Assembly (NCBI GenBank): GCA_963758285.1
Contig: CAVWUT010000006.1
Location: 434,327-498,326 of the forward strand
Reading direction: 5' to 3'
Length of the DNA stretch: 64,000 nucleotides
From: Terriglobia bacterium
GTDB taxonomy: Bacteria > Acidobacteriota > Terriglobia > Terriglobales > Acidobacteriaceae
The notes under the pieces were generated by a model. It did not search any database and was not told the origin of the DNA. It saw nothing but the letters and a program-made list of their open reading frames with translations. Shown piece by piece: positions 2,817 to 64,000 of this stretch; within the stretch, counting starts at the first letter, position 1, and every line of letters starts with the position of its first letter. Both the position numbers and the translations under genes were made by a program.

Positions 2817-2890
2817 AAGGAACCGCCGGAAAGGGTGATTGTACAGGGGCGGTGGACTCGATGTCGGAATTTGGCCGAGCGGGCGGGCGG

Positions 2891-3289
2891 CTATTTCTTT
2901 CGGACTGGATTGACGGGCGTAACCATGGGCCGCCGGACCGGGACGATGGCCCCTCGCGAAGGATCAGCAGCGGCGTTGGCCCGGGTGAGCACCTCTTGCT
3001 GGATGTATTGCACGAACTCCTGAATCTGACGCTGCATCTCCTCCATGCGCTCGCGCATTTGCAGGATAATCGCCATCCCGCTGATGTTCACTCCCAGATC
3101 GCGGGCCAGCGAAAGAACGAATTCCAGGCGCTGGAGGTCTTCGTCGGTGTAAAGGCGGGTATTGCCCTCGGTCCGGGAAGGCTTGAGCAGGCCTTCGCGC
3201 TCGTAGAGGCGCAGGGTCTGGGGATGGATCTCGTACATTTCGGCGACGGCTGAGATCATGTAGGCGCCTTTGGACTTGCGTTTGGTCAC
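2891..3289 (-). CDS. hspR: MerR-family heat-shock repressor HspR
   Basis: HTH YMISAVAEMYEIHPQTLRLYEREGLLKPSRTEGNTRLY is typical of HspR. GTG start at 3289 (ATG alternative at 3259). Lies in a dnaK/dnaJ neighbourhood. Confidence 0.8.
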   Translation of the reverse strand: MTKRKSKGAYMISAVAEMYEIHPQTLRLYEREGLLKPSRTEGNTRLYTDEDLQRLEFVLSLARDLGVNISGMAIILQMRERMEEMQRQIQEFVQYIQQEVLTRANAAADPSRGAIVPVRRPMVTPVNPVRKK

Positions 3290-3414
3290 CGGGATCCCTC
3301 GCTGCGCTCGGGATTTCGCCTGCGGGCTCCCGCTGCGCTCACGCCCGCAAGACGGCTCAACATCTCGGCGACGGCCGAGATCATGTATGCGCCTTTGGAT
3401 TTGCGTTTGGTCAT
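3286..3414 (-). CDS. 42-codon upstream ORF whose first 18 codons duplicate the hspR N-terminus
   Basis: ATG 3414 ... TGA 3288-3286. Peptide MTKRKSKGAYMISAVAEMLSRLAGVSAAGARRRNPERSEGSR. The stop overlaps the hspR GTG (GTGA). Too short for the ORF track; coding status unproven. Confidence 0.35.
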   Translation of the reverse strand: MTKRKSKGAYMISAVAEMLSRLAGVSAAGARRRNPERSEGSR

Positions 3415-3440
3415 AGGTCGGTTCGTGCTCAAATCATATC

Positions 3441-3475
3441 CAAAAAAAGAAAGAGACGCAGCAAGCTACGTCTCC
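3441..3475 (-). terminator. Rho-independent terminator of the permease gene
   Basis: Minus strand GGAGACG-tagcttgctg-CGTCTC followed by TTTCTTTTTTTGG, 27 nt after the stop at 3502. Confidence 0.7.
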
Positions 3476-3501
3476 ATAGGTCAGATCACAAAAGTTCGGG
3501 C

Positions 3502-4911
3502 TTAGTCGTACGCCGCCACTTGCGGCTCCTCTTTGGCAGGTTGAGTCCATCCGCCGGGCTTGAGAGCGTGGTTGATGAAGTACGCGACCACGCCTGCGCC
3601 GATCAGGATCATCCCAAAAGCAAACGAACTCATGCCCAACACCTGCTCGCTTTCGCTTCTTACGACCGAGAAGCCGAGCAGGAGTATGGGAGCGATGCCA
3701 ATCGCGACAGCTCCGAACGTACCCCCGGGAACGCGAAACGGCCGTGCCAACTCGGGCTCGCGGAAGCGCAGCCAGATCAGCGCCAGAAATTCCAATCCCA
3801 GACTTCCGCCGTAAAGAAGAATGTCGAGCGTCACCAGGCGCTCAAAGCCGAGACCAAGGCACATGGCCCAGCAAATCGCCAAAGCGATAATCGCTACCCA
3901 GGGCGCCCGGGTTCGGGGATGCAGCTTGCCGAAGAACTTGGGCAACATACCATCTTCGGCCATGGCGAGCGGCAGCCGGGAATAGCTCATGACCAGGGCA
4001 TTAAACATGCCGAAGCCGCTGATCATGCCGCCCAGTGCCAATCCAACTCTAAGCAGCGGACCGCCCATAAGGCCCGCGATGTCGGCCCAGAAGCCGGTTT
4101 CCCACGCGCTGGCGGGAAGGCCGGTCGTCCACATGGCCGCCACCGGGAGAACGTAACTGACGCTGACAATCGCCACTGCCCAAAGCATGGCCCGCGGATA
4201 GGTCCGCTGCGGACGTTCCACCTCGGTGGCGATGGTAGAGGCGTTGTCCCATCCCATGTAGTTCCACATGCAGATAAGCAATCCGGTCAGGATGCCCACG
4301 CCGGAAGCAGACGGCCTGGCCGCCGCATGCGCCAACATTCCGAACTTCAGCGGCGCAATGACCGCAATGGCAAGAAACGGCGCCGACAAAAGGAAGAACA
4401 GCCACAGCGACGTGGTCGAAACTACGCGTACTCCCGCGATGTTCAGCAGCGCACACACTGTCACCACCGCCAGCGCAACCATTACCCCGCGATGTCCCTC
4501 GGCAAACCACGGAAATAGCCGGTCGAGATAAAGGACAAACAGGGTGGGATAAATCGCCATATCGAAAATCGACGCAACCAGCGAAAGCCAAGCTTCCTGA
4601 AATCCCCAGAAGTTTCCCATCGCTCGTCGCACCCAGGCGTAATAGCCACCTTCATGGGGCAGTGCGCTTGAAAGTTCGCCGATCATGAACGCGGTGGGCA
4701 GGCTCCAGAGAACCGGAGTCAGCAACAGGATGAGGATCGCCTTGCCATAGCCCGCGCCGTGCACGATATCTTCTGTGCCATAGGTTCCACCAGACACCAT
4801 AAAGAAGGTGGCAGCGACCAATGGCCAAAGAGTGAGGCGGACGGATTTCTTCCGGCGGGGAATGATGGTGGGCGGTTGAGTCGGTTGACGGACAGCGCTA
4901 GCGGTTGCCAA
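3502..4911 (-). CDS. APC-superfamily amino acid/polyamine permease
   Basis: 469-aa ORF with about 12 hydrophobic helices and an APC-like N-terminal segment FFMVSGGTYGTEDIV. Confidence 0.8.
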   Translation of the reverse strand: MATASAVRQPTQPPTIIPRRKKSVRLTLWPLVAATFFMVSGGTYGTEDIVHGAGYGKAILILLLTPVLWSLPTAFMIGELSSALPHEGGYYAWVRRAMGNFWGFQEAWLSLVASIFDMAIYPTLFVLYLDRLFPWFAEGHRGVMVALAVVTVCALLNIAGVRVVSTTSLWLFFLLSAPFLAIAVIAPLKFGMLAHAAARPSASGVGILTGLLICMWNYMGWDNASTIATEVERPQRTYPRAMLWAVAIVSVSYVLPVAAMWTTGLPASAWETGFWADIAGLMGGPLLRVGLALGGMISGFGMFNALVMSYSRLPLAMAEDGMLPKFFGKLHPRTRAPWVAIIALAICWAMCLGLGFERLVTLDILLYGGSLGLEFLALIWLRFREPELARPFRVPGGTFGAVAIGIAPILLLGFSVVRSESEQVLGMSSFAFGMILIGAGVVAYFINHALKPGGWTQPAKEEPQVAAYD

Positions 4912-5713: not shown

Positions 5714-5742
5714 TTAGAGGATCAGCCGACTGCGAGCGGGAG

Positions 5743-6969
5743 CTACAGATTTTTCCAAAGCTCAGCCCTGGGGTCTTCGGGGTTGAGCTTCGCCAGCTCG
5801 CGGAGCAGTTCTTTGGTCTTCTCGTCGCGGGGCATGGGGACGGTGATCTTGACTTCGACGATCTCATCCCCGCGCGCACCCTCTTTGGTCGCCGAGGGCA
5901 CACCTTTCTCTCGCAGCCGGAGCTTTTGACCCGACTGGGTTCCCGGCGGAATCCGCAATTGGGCGCGGCCATCAATGGTGGGCACTTCAACTTTGGCGCC
6001 GAGAGCGGCCTCGGTCGCAGTGATCGGAACCGTGAGGTGAATGTCGTCCGCTTCGCGATGGAACACGGGGTGGTCGCCGGTTCGGATGATGACGTAGAGA
6101 TCACCGCCGGGTCCGCCGCGGAGACCGGCGTTGCCTTTGCCGGCAATGCGAATGCGTTGCCCGTCGCGGGTTCCAGGCTTGATCCGGACTTCCAGCGGCT
6201 CGGTGTGGTCGACCGTGCCTTCGCCGTGACAGGCCGCGCAGGTTGAGAGATTCTTGCCCGTGCCATGACAATGCGGGCAGGGAACATTGAACTTCATGCG
6301 GCCGCCAGTCTGAGTGACCTGGCCAGTGCCGCTGCACTCCGGACATTTGCCGGGCGCCTCGATCACGCCCTGTCCGTGGCAGTTTGCACAGGCGTCGCGG
6401 CGGGCGATGTTCAGCCGCATGACGCCGCCGCGGATCGCGGTCCAGAAGGGAACATTGACCTGGTACTCGAGATCGGTGCCCGGCTCAGGCTCTTGCTGCG
6501 CTGCTCCGCCGCGTCCTCCTCCGAACATGCCGGAAAAAACGTCGCGAAATCCGCCGCCGGTGCCTGAACTTTTGCGGCCACGGCCGCCCTCGAACAGGTC
6601 AGAAAAATCGAATCCGCCGAAATCGAAGTGGGCGCCTTGCGCTCCGGTCTGCTCGCCTTGGGGAAACCCCGCACCTGGAAACCCTCCGCCGGTAGCGCCG
6701 GCGCGGGCATAGGCCTCGGCAGTTGCGGGATCGATGTTGTCGGAGTAGAAACCGACCTGGTCGTAGACCTTGCGCTTTTTGGGATCGCTGAGAACGTCGT
6801 TGGCTTCGGAGAGGGCCTTGAACTTCTCCTCGGCCGACTTGTCTCCGGGATTGACGTCGGGATGATACTTGCGGGCAAGCTTGCGGAATGCTTTGCGGAT
6901 GTCCTCGGCGGAGGCGGACTTCTTCACCCCGAGGATGTCGTAGTAATCTTTTTTTGCGGTGGTTGCCAT
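5743..6969 (-). CDS. dnaJ: chaperone DnaJ
   Basis: J domain with HPD (KYHPDVNPG), a G/F-rich linker, and four CxxCxGxG zinc motifs ([32 protein letters not shown]). Confidence 0.97.
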
Positions 6970-7160: not shown

Positions 7161-9092
7161 TTATTTCTTATCTTCCACGTCCACGTACTCAGCGTCGATT
7201 ACGCCTTCGTCTTTCTTCTGACTGGCGCCGTTGCCGCTTTCCGATGGACCAGCACCGGGCCCTGCGCCGGGCGCAGGCCCTGCCTGCGACTGGGCGGCCT
7301 TGTACATCTGCTCGGCCAACTTGTGCGAGGCTTTGGTCAGGTTCTCGCGGGCACGATCCATGGCCGCCTTGTCGCCGCCTTCGAGCGCCTTCTTGGCATC
7401 GGCTACGGCACTTTCGACGTCTCCACGCTCGGAGCCCGAGATTTTGTCGCCGTGCTCGCGCAGCATCTTCTCCACGCTATAGACCATGGAATCGAGCTGG
7501 TTCTTGGCCTCGATGACTTCGCGCTGGGCCTTGTCCTCGGCCGAATGCGAATCGGCTTCCTTTGCCATGCGGTCGACTTCCTCTTTGCTCAGACCCGAAG
7601 ACGACGTAATCGTGATCTTCTGATCCTTCTGCGTGGCCGTGTCCTTGGCAGTCACGTTCAGGATGCCGTTGGCATCGATGTCGAACGTCACCTCAATCTG
7701 CGGCAAGCCGCGTGGTGCCGGCGGAAGTCCCGTCAGATGGAACTTGCCCAACGTGCGGTTCTGTCCGGCCATGGGCCGCTCGCCCTGCAGCACGTGCACT
7801 TCGACCGAAGTCTGATTGTCCGCCGCGGTCGAAAACGTCTCCGTTTTGCGCGTGGGAATCGTCGTGTTGCGCGGGATCATCGGAGTCGCCACCCCGCCCA
7901 GAGTTTCGATCGCCAGCGTCAACGGAGTCACGTCGAGCAGCAGCAGATCCTTCACTTCGCCCTTGAGCACGCCGCCTTGAATCGCCGCACCCACCGCGAC
8001 CACTTCATCCGGGTTTACACCTTTGTGAGGCTCTCTGCCGAACAACTCCTTCACCAGCGCCTGAATGCGCGGCATACGCGTCTGTCCACCGACGAGCACA
8101 ACTTCGTTAATTTTGCTGGCGTCAATCCCGGCGTCCTTCATGCACTGTTTGCACGGGCCTACCGAACGCTGAATGATGTCTTCCACCATCGACTCCAGTT
8201 TGGCTCGGGTCAGCTTCTTGACCAGGTGCTTCGGCCCGCTCGCGTCTGCCGTGATGAACGGCAGGTTAATCTCGTGCTCCATCGTGGTCGAAAGCTCGAT
8301 CTTGGCCCGCTCGGCCGCGTCCCGCAGACGCTGCAACGCCATTTCGTTGCCCTTGGCGCGCAGGTCAAGGCCTTCGTCTTTCTTGAACTCGTCAATCAGC
8401 CAATCGACCAGCCGCTGGTCGATGTTGTCGCCGCCCAGGTGGGTATCACCGTTGGTAGCTTTGACCTCGATCACGCCCTCGCCAACTTCGAGGATGGAAA
8501 TGTCGAACGTGCCGCCGCCGAAGTCGTACACGGCGATGGTCTCGTCCTTCTGTTTATCGAGACCGTAGGCCAGCGCCGCCGCAGTCGGCTCGTTGATGAT
8601 GCGCTTGACATCCAGCCCGGCGATCCGCCCAGCGTCTTTGGTCGCCTGGCGTTGCGCGTCGTTGAAGTACGCCGGCACAGTGATGACCGCGTCGGTGATC
8701 TTCTCGCCGAGATAGTCTTCTGACGCCTTCTTCAGCTTCTGCAGAATCATGGCTGAAATCTCAGGCGGAGTATGTTCTTTGCCCTGCGCCACGACGGCGA
8801 CGTGATCGCCCTGGCGCACGACTTTGTACGGGACCATCTTCATTTCTTCGCTGACTTCGTCGTAGCGCCGTCCCATGAAGCGCTTGATCGAGTAAATTGT
8901 GTTTTCCGGATTGGTGATGGCCTGACGTTTCGCCACCTGTCCCACCAGCCGCTCGCCGGTCTTGGTAAAGCCCACTACGGACGGCGTGGTCCGGCCTCCT
9001 TCTTCGTTAGCGATGACCTTCGGCTCGCCACCTTCCATGACAGCGACGCAGGAGTTGGTGGTGCCGAGGTCGATTCCGATTGTTTTGGCCAT
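7161..9092 (-). CDS. dnaK: chaperone DnaK (Hsp70)
   Basis: 643 aa. Contains [21 protein letters not shown]-type motif ([10 protein letters not shown]), and an acidic C-terminal tail. Confidence 0.98.
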
Positions 9093-58990: not shown

Positions 58991-59223
58991 CGAAACCAAC
59001 CCGAGCGAGCGTCGCCACGCAGAACTCGCATGTCCCTCAAATGCCCAGGCGCAGTTTGGAATTGATCTAGCTCTAAAGTCCGAGCGCCTGAGCCTCAAAT
59101 CATTGCGTCGAGCATTGCCCGATGCGACTGCGCGTATGGAGTAACATTTCAAAAGCGTGGAGGCTCTCGATGAGACAATTGCTGTCCTCCGGCTTTCGCC
59201 CAGTATTGAGGCCCGAGGCGGAG

Positions 59224-59673
59224 ATGTTGCTGCGATTGCGCAGTCCAAACGACGATACGGCTAAGTTGAGAACAAAGCTGCGCGAAGCCGGACTCCGTCC
59301 GACACGAACGCGCCTGGCGCTTAGCGCACTTTTGTTCTCCAAAGGTGATCGCCACGTCACCGCGGAGCAGCTTTTTGAAGAGGCGAACCAGGCTAGGGTG
59401 TCGGTGTCGCTCGCTACGGTCTACAACACCCTCCACCAATTCACCCAAGTTGGTTTTCTACGACAAGTGGCAATTGACGCTTCAAAATCTTATTTTGACA
59501 CAAATACTACCGAACATCATCACTTCTATATCGACGATCGGCATGAGCTTATGGATATTCCCCCGACCAATGTGATCATCGGCAAAGCTCCTGTGCCGCC
59601 AGATGGATACGAGATCGCCCGCATCGATGTACTGGTGCGTTTGCGCCGCAAGGCGGATAACCCGCCAGTTTGA
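59224..59673 (+). CDS. irr: Fur-family regulator of the Irr (iron response regulator) type
   Basis: GLRPTRTRLALSALLFSKGDRHVTAEQLFEEA...VSLATVYNTLHQFTQVGFLRQV...TEHHHFY...PPDGYEIARIDVLVRLRRK closely follows rhizobial Irr, including the HHH motif. ATG 59170 is an alternative start. Confidence 0.75.
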   Translation: MLLRLRSPNDDTAKLRTKLREAGLRPTRTRLALSALLFSKGDRHVTAEQLFEEANQARVSVSLATVYNTLHQFTQVGFLRQVAIDASKSYFDTNTTEHHHFYIDDRHELMDIPPTNVIIGKAPVPPDGYEIARIDVLVRLRRKADNPPV

Positions 59674-60515
59674 TTGTCGCGGGATGACGCTCTTATTTGG
59701 CGCCGAGGGGCGCTTTTGAATCTCTATGCCGGGCGCGGCGCCAACAGCGCCCGAGTTTTAAATTACAAAGACCAAGAACTTTTCAAATTGTAGGCTGCCA
59801 GTTCTCTGCAGCCATAGCCGTGCGCAGTTCACGTAGCCGGGGCTGGCAGCGATAGTTCGCGTCAGATCCATCGGCCTGCCACAGCTCGGGCACAAGTGAT
59901 TTGGATTTAGGCTGTCCCCACCCATGCTTAAGATAGTGACTTGCAAGGCGGATCGTGCCGTGATGGCGGTCACAATTGAGTGGGGATGGTCGAACGTGTC
60001 TGTTGCCGCCTCATCGTGACATCGTCCACGATGCGAAGTCGCTTGCCGCCGGGAGTAGTGAACGGGCGTCCCCAACGGCCCGGTCCGTTGGATAGAAGGA
60101 GGGCTGTCATAAAATGGCGATCATTCGCGCGCGTGTTGTAGCCCCATGAGGATAGAGCTCAACTATCAAGCCGAAACCTTCGAAGAGGCAATTTGCCAAA
60201 CCAAGTGATTTACTTGGTCAAGGGCATGCCCCCGCGCAAAATATTGGATCAGCTCATGGCGCGAGGCTTTGTACGGGACCCTGGCAACAACGCGTTGGAG
60301 GTCGTAGCGCAAAGATTAGGGGAGATGGCCGAACAGATGCGCCATGATCGCATTGGCACGGGGGCCCCGCGTAGCCCAAATCCCATGTAACCAAGCTGCC
60401 GAAGCCGTAGCCGGCCGGCGGCGCCCTTCAGCTTGGCGACGGTCATGGCCTTGTCGAATTCCGACAAGGCAACCGCACCTGTACATCCGACATCCCGGTC
60501 ACTCGGAGGCTGGAG

Positions 60516-60725
60516 CTATCGTGGCTCCGGCTGATCGCTTCGGGCCAGCACCCGAGCGTGGTCACAAAGCATGATTAGCCGACCAGGATACTCCTCGACG
60601 CGGGTTCGGTAGATCGATCGGGCGATCTTGAGGTCGGCGTGACGATCGAGGATCTCCTCGATGCCGGCGCCTTCACCGCCCGGCTTGAAAAGCTCGATCG
60701 AGTATCTTGCAATGTCGGTCGGCAT
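60516..60725 (-). CDS. hypothetical 69-aa protein
   Basis: Protein-like MPTDIARYSIELFKPGGEGAGIEEILDRHADLKIARSIYRTRVEEYPGRLIMLCDHARVLARS. No family named. Confidence 0.3.
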   Translation of the reverse strand: MPTDIARYSIELFKPGGEGAGIEEILDRHADLKIARSIYRTRVEEYPGRLIMLCDHARVLARSDQPEPR

Positions 60726-61085
60726 TCGCCGGACTCTGTATGGGCCACCTAGTCTCCTTGTATTTCTCGACCAGCGTTACGAGACGGAATGATCGGGCAC
60801 GCGTCGTCAACCCAAATGCTTCAATTTTTATGTGTTGGAAAAATAGCCAACATGGCGTCCAGCCAGCTGCCAAAATTTGAAAAATAAGCGTTGTTCAATT
60901 CGCGTCACTGAGTTGCTTAGATACAAACGGATCCTACTCACCAATGGTACGCACAACGCTACTTTCAGGCCGGGTATTGTTAGGCAAAAGCTTGTCCTGT
61001 TGCCTGACCATTTCGTCGTACTTCGGCACTGTGGTGACCTCGCCCTTTGGCACCATGTGCACCACCTTGAAGCCGCCCGCCTTGA

Positions 61086-61181
61086 GCATTCAATTACCTC
61101 GCGTACACCGGCAACCCTGTGGACCGGAAGGCTGTCCATTATCACAACGTCGCCGCGCTTGAGAAGGCGACCTCGACCGCA
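61086..61181 (-). mobile_element. remnant of an IS630-family transposase (DDE region fragment)
   Basis: LLKRGDVVIMDSLPVHRVAGVREVIE resembles the L-x-PGD-IV-MDN-L-x-H...IE segment of IS630 transposases. No intact ORF or terminal repeats seen. Confidence 0.4.
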
Positions 61182-61201
61182 GGCTGACGCAGGTTCTTCG
61201 C

Positions 61202-61864
61202 TCATTCGGTCGGTCTTACCTTCGCTAAGAACTTCTCGAACGCGGCACGACCTTCCTTGCCGGTCTGCTCTTCGACCTTCTGGAGGATCTCATCGACGGA
61301 GCGCGGCTTGGATCCGTCCCGGTGGGTAACGTCGGCTGGCACCCTCACGATCTTAGACAAGCCAACGAGCGCGGTGAAATACGCTAGCGGGTTGGTCTCA
61401 AAGACCCAATCGAAGATCTTGTATCCCTTCTCGTCATAGTGGCGCTGGAAGTCGCCGAGAAACTTGCCGCTAATCACCTGCACATTGCTGTCTTGGCGGA
61501 CAACTACGGGATTGTTGATCCCATCCTGTACCGGCGGCTTAATCTCGACGGTGGCTTCGGTCTTTTTGGAGCCCTTGCGGGATCTCCTCGGCCGCTCAAT
61601 CCGAAAAGCTAACCGGCTTGCGGGATCAACCAGCCCATAGCGCGGCGCCGAGCTGCGAAAGTAGTGGGCGATATAAAGCCGCAGCGCCGACGCCAATGGA
61701 CACTTCGGGTCCTTCGCAGCAACAACGCCCTCAATGAACGCCTTCGCTGTCAATCCGCACTCGGCCGCAATCTCTCGTAGCCAGCCCCAATACGCTGGCT
61801 CTAGCCGGACAGAGGTCGGATGACCGTTGATGATTATTCTTCTGGGTTGAACGTGAGACGGCAT
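61202..61864 (-). CDS. RHH_4-type ribbon-helix-helix protein with about 130-aa C-terminal extension of unknown family
   Basis: MPSHVQPRRIIINGHPTSVRLEPAYWGWLREIAAECGLTAKAFIEGVVAAKDPKCPLASALRLYIAHYF is a complete RHH_4-like domain. ATG 61864 preferred over the ORF-track start 61927. Confidence 0.65.
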   Translation of the reverse strand: MPSHVQPRRIIINGHPTSVRLEPAYWGWLREIAAECGLTAKAFIEGVVAAKDPKCPLASALRLYIAHYFRSSAPRYGLVDPASRLAFRIERPRRSRKGSKKTEATVEIKPPVQDGINNPVVVRQDSNVQVISGKFLGDFQRHYDEKGYKIFDWVFETNPLAYFTALVGLSKIVRVPADVTHRDGSKPRSVDEILQKVEEQTGKEGRAAFEKFLAKVRPTE

Positions 61865-62267
61865 CAGAACAAGCTTGGCACGGCCATTAGCGACAGCGGG
61901 ACCGGCGGACCGCGCCGGCGCCAGCAAATAGGAAGTGGAGCACGCCGCGCCGGTTCATTTTTGGTCGACCTTCGCGCTAGGATGTTCTTGGCGGCACTGT
62001 TGGCGCATCCGATTCACTTCTCAATTGACGTCTTGTTGCTCACGCATGACGCTACTCCAGTGGCTGGCCAAGCAAATCAATCCTGTCATCCCTTGATCCA
62101 GTATAGCCGGGCAGCGCGCCGCCCACCTGCGCGGTTTCTAGCTGTGAACGCGCCATGTGACCACAAGCCGGCGGGTGATGTTCGCAGGTTTTGATACCCC
62201 GCCACGACACACATCTACTGGATAACCTATTGATAATGCGTCGTTTTCTGATTGCTAGGGCCAGAAC

Positions 62268-62474
62268 TCATGCCACTACAATCGTATATATCCCAGACGT
62301 CGCCGAGCCGCATGCGATCGTCAGCATGCCAACAACGCCCTCAATGAACGCTTTCGCTGTCAATCCGCACTCGGCCGCAATCTCTCGTAGCCAGCCCCAA
62401 TACGCTGGCTCTAGCCGGACAGAGGTCGGATGACCGTTGATGATTATTCTTCTGGGTTGAACGTGAGACGGCAT
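62268..62474 (-). CDS. truncated RHH_4 paralogue (repeat copy 2): RHH core plus unrelated 20-aa tail
   Basis: Residues from ATG 62474 are identical to copy 1 up to ...AKAFIEGVV, then GMLTIACGSATSGIYTIVVA and stop. Confidence 0.5.
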   Translation of the reverse strand: MPSHVQPRRIIINGHPTSVRLEPAYWGWLREIAAECGLTAKAFIEGVVGMLTIACGSATSGIYTIVVA

Positions 62475-62869
62475 CAGAACAAGCTTGGCACGGCCATTAG
62501 CGACAGCAGGACCGGCGGACCGCGCCGGCGCCAGCAAATAGGAAGTGGAGCACGCCGCGCCGGTTCATTTTTGGTCGACCTTCGCGCTATGAGGTTCTTG
62601 GCGGCGCTGTTGGCGCATCCGATTCACTTCTCAATTGACGTCTTGTTGCTCACGCATGACGCTACTCCAGTGGCTGGCCAAGCAAATCAATCCTGTCATC
62701 CCTTGATCTAGTATAGCCGGGCAGCGCGCCGCCCACCTGCGCGGTTTTGCTTAGCCATGTGACCACAAGCCGGCGGGTGATGTTCGCAGGTTTTGATACC
62801 CCGCCACGACACACATCTACTGGATAACCTATTGATAATGCGTCGTTTTCTGATTGCTAGGGCCAAAAC

Positions 62870-63073
62870 TCATGCCACTACAATCGTATATACCCCAACG
62901 TCGCCGAGCCGCATCGATCGATCAGCAGCAACAACGCCCTCAATGAACGCTTTCGCTGTCATTCCGCACTCGGCCGCAATCTCTCGTAGCCAGCCCCGAT
63001 ACGCTGGCTCTAGCCGGACAGAGGTCGGATGACCGTTGATGATTATTCTTCTGGGTTGAACGTGAGACGGCAT
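62870..63073 (-). CDS. truncated RHH_4 paralogue (repeat copy 3)
   Basis: Same as copy 2 from ATG 63073, with two substitutions (W to R, L to M) and tail AADRSMRLGDVGVYTIVVA. Confidence 0.5.
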   Translation of the reverse strand: MPSHVQPRRIIINGHPTSVRLEPAYRGWLREIAAECGMTAKAFIEGVVAADRSMRLGDVGVYTIVVA

Positions 63074-63406
63074 CAGAACAAGCTTGGCACGACCATTAGC
63101 GACAGCAGGACCGGCGGACCGCGCCGGCGCCAGCAAATAGGAAGTGGAGCACGCCGCGCCGGTTCATTTTTGGTCGACCTTCGCGCTATGAGGTTCTTGG
63201 CGCCGCTGTTGGCGCATCCGATTCACTTCTCAATTGACGTCTTGTTGCTGGGCGCCATCATAAACCTCGAGGATTGGGTGCGGAGCCTTGGCCTCGGCCA
63301 ATGTGAGGCAGCTACGCGATAGACCTCGGCGTCCTGCCCGGCATCATTAAGGCCAAGTGTTGCCGTTAAATCAAAAAACGGCCATCCCTAAGTGGTGAGG
63401 ACGAAA

Positions 63407-63697
63407 ATGCCAACCGTTGCGCTTCAAGTTACAGTCACTGACTATGCAAAATGGCGGCCTATTTTCGACAAGTACAGGTCATACCGAGCTGAAGCCGGAT
63501 TTAAGAACGAACGGGTATTCCGAAACGTCGACGATCCCAATGAAATAATCATTTGGGGGGAGGCGACGAGCGGATCAAAATTACGCAGGGCGCTGGCAAG
63601 CCCGGAGCTCAAGGCCGCGATGAAAGAAGCGGGTGGCGTGGCTGGAACCTTAAAGCTGCATGTCATCCCTTACAGCAGTGACGCTGTTATAGCATAG
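63407..63697 (+). CDS. small protein, possibly dimeric alpha/beta-barrel (ABM-like) fold
   Basis: GGTGAGG RBS then ATG 63407. MPTVALQVTVTDYAKWRPIFDKYRSYRAEAGFKNERVFRNVDDPNEIIIWGEA... Family call is tentative. Confidence 0.45.
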   Translation: MPTVALQVTVTDYAKWRPIFDKYRSYRAEAGFKNERVFRNVDDPNEIIIWGEATSGSKLRRALASPELKAAMKEAGGVAGTLKLHVIPYSSDAVIA

Positions 63698-64000
63698 ACT
63701 TGGGGATCGCAGCGCGTATTAGTCCATCATCTGTATTGCTCAGGCGCGGCGCACCATACAAATGCCCCGGCTGCTGTATTGTTTTGTCTGGATCAGACGC
63801 ACTGTTTGATGAATCCCATCCAAAGCAGCAGAAACGGAGGTTCGGCAGGAATCTCTCGCCAATGTCGTTCCTTAAGCAGACACGATCTGCGTCAAATGCT
63901 GGGATTGGTGATATCGCCGCCACGGCTTGAAAACGTCAGCATCGACCCTCGCGGAAGCGAATGAGGAGGGGAATAGGTTGGCTTATGACGATCCGCTTCA

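Follow-up and report, generated by a model that had tools for sequence, protein, structure and literature searches.

A three-unit array reiterating the start of an RHH_4 gene is probably a decaying local tandem duplication

RHH_4 proteins (PF13467) are ribbon-helix-helix (RHH) proteins of the MetJ/Arc/CopG superfamily, which comprises transcriptional repressors and antitoxins. Tandem segmental duplication, classically described in enterobacteria, begins with an illegitimate joining event and proceeds by unequal crossing-over. We analysed an array in which the start of an RHH_4 gene occurs three times, near the right end of a 64,000-nt stretch of DNA (the window). A preliminary description of this locus offered three readings, namely dosage amplification of a repressor or antitoxin, an iteron-like regulatory array, and an amplification in decay beside the remnant of a mobile element. 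The last of these is the supported one, given the truncated copies, the scrambled state of the gene family and a precedent in a relative (locus L040). We consider it probable that the array is a decaying local tandem duplication expanded by unequal crossing-over, and not a functional set of three genes.

Repeats arranged head to tail in the order A1-B1-A2-B2-A3 occupy positions 61720–63249 of the window; their periods measure 610 and 599 nt, at ~97% identity. A repeat search located a 300-nt core at 61720, 62330 and 62929, at the same two spacings and with 97–98% identity, and a second repeat family (62152–62295 versus 62754–62897) that is 99% identical. Self-BLAST aligned units 1-2 with units 2-3 at 96.9% identity across 932 nt, and A1 with A3 (61716–62040 versus 62925–63249) at 97.2% across 325 nt; the E-values of 0 to 1e-157 exclude chance similarity. 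TRF reported no array because the period exceeds its maximum of 500, which makes that result uninformative. Together with a MAFFT alignment of the three units, in which the repeats, indels and junctions were mapped, these searches reproduced the unit layout, both periods and the end of the third unit at 63249 as previously described.

Segment A is 320 nt long and joins a 176-nt leader to the opening ~50 codons of a gene on the minus strand, while segment B is ~250 nt of further non-coding upstream sequence, followed by a junction of 32–37 nt. On this strand, A1 comprises codons 1 to ~50 (61720–61864) and the leader of unit 1 (61865–62040, the 176 nt upstream of the ATG), and B1 occupies 62041–62292. 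Unit 2 has its leader at 62475–62650 and B2, which is family-typical at the indel site, at 62651–62894. The leader of unit 3 (63074–63249) is cut at AGCAAC inside a conserved leader stretch and has no B. Each unit had been thought to hold about 68 codons and ~120 nt of upstream sequence. The start codon of the relatives, cluster representatives of 218–220 aa, is the ATG at 61864 (MPSHV), so that the unit really contains ~48–51 codons and the 176-nt leader. The junctions, already described as variable, are seen in the alignment as two fillers on the same strand, f1 between truncated copy 2 and B1 (62293–62329) and f2 between truncated copy 3 and B2 (62895–62928). They are homologous and 3–4 indels or substitutions apart, which points to a single joining event whose product was later copied. 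With its constant period and one novel join point, the head-to-tail array has the form of a tandem duplication.

The units differ by 1.3–2.8%, plus small indels, indicating that the array is old and stable and not transient. B1 carries a private 8-nt insertion, with GCGTTCACAGCTAG where B2 has TAAGC, so that the 8-nt indel noted earlier reappears in the MAFFT alignment; the ORF list contains no ORF conserved across the B1/B2 indels. Three sites distinguish unit 1 from units 2 and 3 and vary among the family copies at other loci as well, which could reflect gene conversion or an origin of the units from different family copies. An assembly artefact, in which a repeat was collapsed or expanded or different family copies were fused into a chimera, might be suspected from the multi-copy nature of the family, from the metagenomic origin of the relatives' assemblies and from the many short-read contigs that break inside the unit. 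It is nonetheless highly improbable: the divergence of the units, with private substitutions and indels including the 8-nt one, is unlike simple stutter, as had been argued before, comparable arrays occur in independent assemblies, and an array of 1.5 kb is easily spanned by long reads.

Only unit 1 runs on into an intact gene, the sole one of the array (61202–61864, minus strand, stop codon at 61202–61204). Its 220-aa product consists of an RHH_4 domain (residues ~7–68) and an uncharacterised helical domain of ~125 aa, for which we use our own name, X. Copy 1 is a clear member of RHH_4, scoring 60.2 bits over profile positions 3–66 of 67 (gathering score 25 bits). Relatives of 218–220 aa share 94–97% identity with the 220-aa protein, and dN/dS among intact copies is 0.15–0.5 in both halves of the gene. 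X represents an unannotated small-protein family, with 137 representatives at E<1e-3, that is found repeatedly beside or fused to RHH_4. A member of the X family is also present on a phage-like contig.

Searches with X gave no family in Pfam, NCBIfam (full-length protein only) or PHROG, and no PDB match either by sequence profile or by Foldseek. Its best BFVD match, a DUF5681 phage protein, has E = 0.29 and serves as a lead only, and AlphaFold, run on the whole protein as a single sequence, gave a poor model (pLDDT 43). When the X domain and a central X-family member were searched by tblastn against phages and plasmids, no match was returned, and scans of viral contigs likewise detected no B terminus, no 220-aa protein and no P0088. 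The locus does not qualify as a type II toxin–antitoxin system, as no known-toxin partner was found adjacent or fused, X having no Pfam, NCBIfam, PHROG, PDB or fold match; at the RHH_4-X locus neither a partner toxin nor an operator was identified. The RHH_4-X protein presumably acts as a regulator that binds DNA.

Copies 2 and 3 are truncated. Copy 2 is a minus-strand ORF of 68 aa (62268–62474, ATG at 62474) with the tail GMLTIACGSATSGIYTIVVA and a stop codon within B1, and copy 3 is one of 67 aa (62870–63073, ATG at 63073) with the tail AADRSMRLGDVGVYTIVVA. Their predicted junction peptides are ...EGVVGMLTIACGSATSGIYTIVVA and ...EGVVAADRSMRLGDVGVYTIVVA, and the C-terminal tails are read via the same junction into B, the source of the stop codon. 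These tails had been called unrelated; they are unrelated to the native protein, but related to each other (...IYTIVVA and ...VYTIVVA). Against RHH_4 the two copies score 45.5 and 38.9 bits and match profile positions 3–43 of 67 only. The RHH core attributed to them is thus retained as to the beta strand and two helices, whereas the last third of Pfam RHH_4 is lost; neither copy has a complete RHH_4 domain, with positions 44–67 and all of X missing.

In agreement with the preliminary description, the RHH peptide is the same in copies 1 and 2, the two differing there by one synonymous change, and has two substitutions in copy 3 (W>R and L>M). Four changes in 320 nt are private to copy 3, and both coding ones are non-synonymous; W>R hits a tryptophan that is retained in all seven of the genuine RHH_4 relatives aligned. 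A dosage amplification of a repressor or antitoxin does not fit, since the repeats stop short of the full gene: they comprise just the leader and codons 1 to ~50 of 220, the extra copies have neither RHH_4 positions 44–67 nor the C-terminal domain, and copy 3 has lost the conserved tryptophan. Copies 2 and 3 appear to be gene fragments with no detectable constraint, the five and four differences per 320 nt giving selection tests no power. Short RHH peptides could still be expressed from them, since the copy 2 peptide is unchanged and both extra copies retain the start codon and the full 176-nt leader. By exact look-up, no record was found of the window's RHH ORFs (five versions) or of the 220-aa product, and no second instance of this locus came to light.

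If such peptides were made, they might heterodimerise or compete with the full protein; alternatively, the three leaders might act as decoy sites that titrate RHH_4-X. The retention of the ATG, beta strand, two helices and leader in each unit, the unchanged peptide of copy 2 and the leader stretch AGCAACAAGACGTCAATTGAGAAGTGAATCGGATGCGCC, which is nearly invariant among family copies, are in line with a regulatory function, and autoregulation is common among RHH proteins. We regard this function as quite unlikely, however, because the last third of RHH_4 and all of X are absent from the peptides, W>R in copy 3 strikes a conserved core position, the identical truncated ORFs are not on record elsewhere by exact look-up, and the whole family is strewn with fragments whose breakpoints are essentially random, as debris would be. 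The DNA of the units argues in the same direction. A promoter scan found no sigma-70-like site on the gene strand within the units, so that the promoter region named in the preliminary description is a putative one, and an Rfam search of 60.5–64 kb gave chance-level matches only (best E = 2.6, far below the gathering score). The RNA fold of the 431-nt leader plus B was not more stable than that of shuffled controls (z = +0.98), and the leader and B do not qualify as a structured non-coding RNA. No short direct repeats or iterons occur in the 450-nt upstream unit, which contains one weak 10-nt inverted pair. An iteron-like array does not fit a 600-nt unit without such short repeats.

The array unit belongs to a multi-copy family of uncultured soil Alphaproteobacteria, and a single MAG contains six of its loci. 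B, leader and gene are contiguous in L001 (window 62292→61190 = L001 5574–6669) and in other loci, and B is therefore native upstream sequence, not a foreign spacer. Deletions and inversions, together with further partial duplications in tandem, have scrambled the family members nearly everywhere. Partial tandem or inverted copies are found in L001, in L020 and L034, and in L039 and L040, inverted pieces lie in L002, L006 and L009, and ~60 distinct breakpoints are spread along the 1.1-kb unit. The arrangement in the window, which had been considered unusual, is accordingly not unusual for this gene family. One relative is particularly informative. In L040, the second B is preceded by codon 7 of the gene and then by 17 nt (CGTTTGCGTGCCACGTA) that match the local sequence beside the first B at every position, and this identity marks L040 as an in situ tandem duplication spanning the unit end. 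The leftmost B and its flank are missing in the window, so that a join point carrying local flank is seen in the relative only. A breakpoint hot spot at codon ~50, proposed from the cut in L041 that lies 3–6 nt from that of the window, was rejected as unproven; with ~60 breakpoints in 1.1 kb, such a coincidence is likely to arise.

A further feature of the family is the left terminus of B. In B1 it reads (A/G)TATATACGATTGTAGTGGCATGAG at ~62288–62292. Across the family the terminus TATACGATTGTAGTGGCATGAG is nucleotide-identical at 13 instances that adjoin at least 10 unrelated flanks, as expected of the end of a mobile element, and for this reason the family may be an undescribed mobile element. 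The B-leader-gene unit would then be mobile or self-copying, its copies having inserted beside or into an older copy, nested or in tandem, at codon ~50. Besides the six loci in one MAG, such insertion would account for the layout of truncated gene, short filler and B terminus that recurs with differing cut points and fillers in L001, L020 and the window, for the family-polymorphic sites that set unit 1 apart, and for L018 and L019, where a full gene is followed by a B-like segment ~135 nt later. (MAFFT sets the filler opposite the post-gene spacer of these two loci, but over ~13 bases only, and this match is not relied on.)

We consider mobility unlikely as the origin of the array. The fillers of the window are homologous and so go back to a single junction, the filler in L040 is local flank, and the rest of the supposedly interrupted gene was not found downstream. 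The family copies, whose right-hand homology ends at differing points, yielded no defined right terminus, consistent terminal inverted repeats, target-site duplication, transposase or recombinase, and no conserved neighbouring gene. Inverted B copies occur in L002 only and have no target duplication. We give equally little credence to the proposal that the unit, of ~1.1 kb or longer, is an undescribed selfish self-copying element of uncultured soil Alphaproteobacteria, with RHH_4-X as its own DNA-binding factor and a mode of copying (e.g., one-ended or template-switching replication) that would yield tandem, inverted and truncated copies.

Two features border the array, on one side a weak DDE_3-like fragment and on the other a recurrent breakpoint at 63250. 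To the right, 63250–63330 (plus strand) is the left edge of a separate conserved block and holds an N-terminal fragment of a SAM-domain cyclase (IINLEDWVRSLGLGQCEAA), with a SAM-like match to L039. The block runs into an ABM-like gene (63407–63697); a HAMP-cyclase gene comes next in other genomes, past the end of the window. Eight loci match the window at 98–100% from 63250 rightwards (two of them from 63244 or 63249), and their left flanks are different and unrelated, including IS110 arrays. On the other side, homology to the family breaks off sharply at 61183, 19 nt beyond the stop codon, where other copies go on with TGTCCACTTGAGATC.... The family-typical downstream region is replaced here by 60828–61182 (minus strand), which contains a DDE_3 (IS630-type) transposase-like fragment. 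The IS remnant mentioned in the preliminary description corresponds to this stretch of 23 DDE_3-like residues, but its score of 13.4 bits (E = 0.069) is below the Pfam threshold and supports it weakly. An IS630 remnant was not confirmed by anything beyond this sub-threshold match. Neither the fillers nor the right-hand flank had a significant relative when compared by BLAST with all loci, and the array and downstream region matched no plasmid by megablast or blastn.

On the duplication reading, the array would have arisen as follows. A resident family unit at this locus would have consisted of a short local flank, B, the leader and the RHH_4-X gene. Illegitimate recombination may have joined codon ~50 (GTTGTTGCTGC) to a point ~35 nt upstream of B, giving a ~600-nt direct duplication with one new junction, and unequal crossing-over between A segments would have added one further unit. 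A later rearrangement would have cut the leftmost unit at AGCAAC, so that it now abuts the recurrent 63250 boundary, and another would have swapped the sequence downstream of the gene, 19 nt past its stop codon. The units would then have diverged by 1.3–2.8% and gained small indels. The leftmost unit has no filler and B of its own, which counts against this reading, as an extra truncation event must be assumed. The anatomy of the repeats, the points of truncation, the multiple and scrambled family copies and the in situ duplication in a relative are shown directly, whereas we infer the sequence of events and the absence of function in copies 2 and 3.

In annotation, the three RHH_4 gene starts in 1.5 kb should accordingly be read as one gene and two pseudogene fragments, and their arrangement lends no support to either an iteron origin or a repressor dosage system. 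The family as a whole combines a selected RHH_4-X gene, a long conserved leader and one precise terminus; each genome carries several copies, and almost all loci are rearranged. A mobile unit would represent a small element that has no recognisable transposase, and an immobile one a good natural example of the decay of a repeat family by local duplication and deletion in IS-rich soil alphaproteobacterial genomes.

Among known systems, RHH_4 proteins resemble the intact gene product, which covers the whole profile, and the truncated copies, which retain the strand and first two helices; they differ in that the intact protein is fused to X and the extra copies have lost positions 44–67. Iteron and RHH operator arrays likewise place co-oriented repeats upstream of a gene for a DNA-binding protein, but their units are ~10–22 bp, as against 600 nt without internal short repeats here. 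MITE-like or IS-derived repeats and IS 'graveyards' share the multiple copies per genome, one nucleotide-precise terminus at unrelated flanks, and frequently fragmented copies near IS110, IS630 or IS5-type genes. In contrast to them, the present unit carries a selected non-transposase gene, and its copies showed neither terminal inverted repeats nor a target-site duplication or a defined second end. Transient amplification under selection differs from an array that is old, stable and diverged by 1.3–2.8% with indels. Compared with the tandem duplications and amplifications of enterobacteria, the unit is very short (600 nt) and includes only the 5' end of a gene and upstream DNA. It shares with them the direct repeats, the constant period, one novel join per unit, more than two copies and, in the relative L040, a join point that carries the local flank.

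The repeat array is real and occupies positions 61720-63249 of the window (described on the plus strand). A repeat search placed the three copies of segment A, 320 nt long and all in the same orientation, at 61720, 62330 and 62929 (spacing 610 and 599 nt). Between them lie two copies of B, a non-coding upstream segment of ~250 nt, and after each B comes a junction of 32-37 nt. By self-BLAST, neighbouring units are 96.9% identical over 932 nt, and A1 and A3 share 97.2% identity over 325 nt. TRF reported no repeat for the array because its maximum period, 500, is below the array period. On the minus strand, the gene-sense strand, the order is unique DNA, A3, junction filler f2, B2, A2, filler f1, B1 and A1, continuing into the gene. 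B1 has a private 8-nt insertion at a place where B2 is family-typical, and unit 3 is cut at AGCAAC, exactly at 63249/63250, within the most conserved leader stretch. The preliminary description of the array was upheld overall, with its 8-nt indel, variable junctions and end at 63249 all as described.

Unit 1 runs into an intact minus-strand gene, RHH_4-X (61202-61864; 220 aa, N-terminus MPSHV). Cluster representatives of 218-220 aa and 94-97% identity have the same start Met, and each A therefore comprises a 176-nt leader and ~50 codons. Pfam RHH_4 matches the intact protein at residues ~7-68 (60.2 bits, profile positions 3-66/67), for which a single-sequence model predicted helices at residues 23-35, 40-49 and 56-70. 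In copies 2 and 3, the truncated front ends of the gene, the match is limited to profile positions 3-43, so that the strand and two helices are retained and the conserved third helix is gone. Both halves of the gene show a dN/dS of 0.15-0.5 when intact family copies are compared, so the fused RHH_4-X is a genuine gene under selection. A 56%-identical relative on a 23.6-kb contig (P0028, 195 aa) carries an in-frame duplication of the whole RHH_4 module, laid out as RHH_4 - RKSRKRRGR - RHH_4, which could form a single-chain RHH dimer or be merely one more duplication product.

X, the C-terminal domain of the gene product (~125 aa; 61205-61582, minus strand), is a separate module and represents an unannotated small-protein family (P0072-P0186). 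In an exhaustive HMMER search, 137 representative proteins matched at E<1e-3, most of them standing alone at 95-150 aa. It belongs to no Pfam, NCBIfam or PHROG family, a PDB sequence search gave no match and a fold search gave no significant one, the nearest lead being phage DUF5681. An alignment-based AlphaFold model predicted five helices with a mean pLDDT of 73 and a core above 90. The link between X and RHH_4 recurs: the two share an operon on the P0072 contig, are divergent neighbours at locus L042 and are fused anew in the distant P0089. One X homologue comes from a phage-like contig, L043, where an SU10-type portal gene is also present; at another locus (L038) X is near DUF6378 and DUF4406 genes.

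The gene belongs to a multi-copy family in uncultured soil Alphaproteobacteria. A scan of species-representative genomes gave seven loci, six of them in a single MAG (an uncultured alphaproteobacterium); 27 further short contigs came from a metagenome scan. In L001, window 62292->61190 is matched as a single contiguous 1.1-kb stretch, so B is native far-upstream DNA of the RHH_4-X gene, not a foreign spacer. Rearrangement is seen at almost every family locus, with ~60 different breakpoints along the 1.1-kb unit: the leader has a 128-nt deletion in L002 and L003 and a 78-nt insertion in many copies, pieces are inverted in L002, L006 and L009, and stop codons or frameshifts occur in L004, L005, L016 and L021. 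In L002, B plus 47 nt of outside flank forms an inverted pair (5722-5976 and 7566-7812, 94% identical) that encloses the gene together with ~900 nt of downstream sequence, which may be a longer unit form or an inversion-duplication. L003 has a shorter inverted leader fragment 3' of the gene. At 6670-6900 in L001, 3' of its gene copy, a ~60-nt motif, GGTGCCATTYAGTGCC...GGGTTGAYGGCACT, is present twice and resembles a small palindromic repeat element.

The left terminus of B, (A/G)TATATACGATTGTAGTGGCATGAG, is identical at 13 instances adjoining at least 10 unrelated flanks. On the right the family has no single end; past the stop codon most copies run on as TGTCCACTTGAGATC... for varying lengths, and window homology ends at 61183, 19 nt beyond the stop codon. 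Tandem partial copies are habitual in the family. L001 has a degraded partial gene, 55 nt and then the B terminus; in L020 the gene is cut at window-equivalent 61491 and followed by 37 nt and B; L039 has the 3' end of the gene and then a second gene copy; and in L034 B alternates with a 3' piece of the gene. L040 carries at least three tandem partial units and inverted segments. Ahead of its second B stand codon 7 of the gene and, next, a 17-nt stretch that exactly matches the local sequence flanking the first B. The duplicated segment thus took in resident flanking DNA, and this is decisive for the mechanism at that locus, an in situ tandem duplication. The region concerned, 2836-4490, is extremely scrambled: after the tandem leader/B units come leader and gene segments in inverted orientation, and every piece is 94-100% identical to the window unit.

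Within the window array, the two fillers show mutual homology (CTGCTGATCGATCGATGCGGCTCGGCGACGTTGGGGTA vs GCATGCTGACGATCGCATGCGGCTCGGCGACGTCTGGGATA), suggesting that a single junction was made and then copied, as would happen in unequal crossing-over between A segments. Over the 320 nt of A, units 1 and 2 differ at 5 positions, 2 and 3 at 4, and 1 and 3 at 9; an assembly artefact is highly improbable. At two sites unit 1 has the family consensus and units 2 and 3 share derived bases; at three more, unit 1 differs from both where the family itself is polymorphic, which may reflect gene conversion. Unit 3 has four private changes, and both coding ones are non-synonymous; one turns the tryptophan of the Y/F-W motif, a residue that each of the seven aligned genuine RHH_4 relatives has, into arginine.

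A regulatory role for the truncated peptides or decoy leaders is unlikely. Retention of the ATG and leader in copies 2 and 3 is the sole argument for their function, and they may be expressed at a low level. Within the units, a promoter scan gave no sigma-70-like promoter in the gene's orientation, Rfam matched no family, RNA stability was not unusual (z = +0.98), and there are no short internal repeats usable as iterons or operators. Of the earlier proposals, decaying amplification alone is supported; dosage amplification of a repressor or antitoxin-like gene and an iteron-like array are unsupported. An arginine-rich antisense ORF, MTVDDYSSGLNVRRHQNKLGT..., extends out of the RHH coding sequence and across the leader in each unit (61820-62194, 62430-62711 and 63029-63322, plus strand) and in L001. 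It has no Pfam match, is disrupted in L002 and L003 by the 128-nt deletion and is probably spurious.

Fragments of genes and elements make up the hypervariable stretch in which the array lies, between the Irr gene (59122-59673) and the conserved block at 63250-64000 (plus strand). On the left, the 61183 end adjoins a DDE_3-like stretch of 23 residues (E = 0.07, sub-threshold), the sole match (about 61090-61160) in the ~1.5 kb at 59700-61200, where no ORF has a family match. Window 60916-61087 is 95% identical to L031, another family-bearing contig. On the right, eight loci with an identical ABM-like protein (L044-L051) match the window at 98-100% from the 63250 edge rightwards, starting exactly there in six, at 63244 in L049 and at 63249 in L050; to the left, these loci have IS110 arrays or other, unrelated DNA. 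Homology of L050 to the other seven is lost within ~3 nt of the edge, and those seven share an extra 80-nt piece. The block holds a SAM-domain N-terminal fragment (63250-63320, by reading the N-terminus of a SAM-domain cyclase) and the 96-aa ABM-like gene (63407-63697), to which the eight loci add a 571-aa HAMP-cyclase. The block is repeated, 98-100% identical, on at least eight metagenome contigs whose right flanks also differ, and an index of the collection lists the exact ABM protein in 110 of its blocks; the alternatives are a hypervariable locus and a repeated module whose left edge is sharp.

The best explanation, which we consider probable, is that the 5' part of one member of a recombination-prone repeat family was duplicated locally and that the resulting array is decaying. 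Nested or tandem insertion by a mobile unit is unlikely, slightly less so than the regulatory role. Of greater interest are the source of B's precise terminus and the cause of the family's heavy rearrangement; as a kind of feature, the array itself is ordinary.
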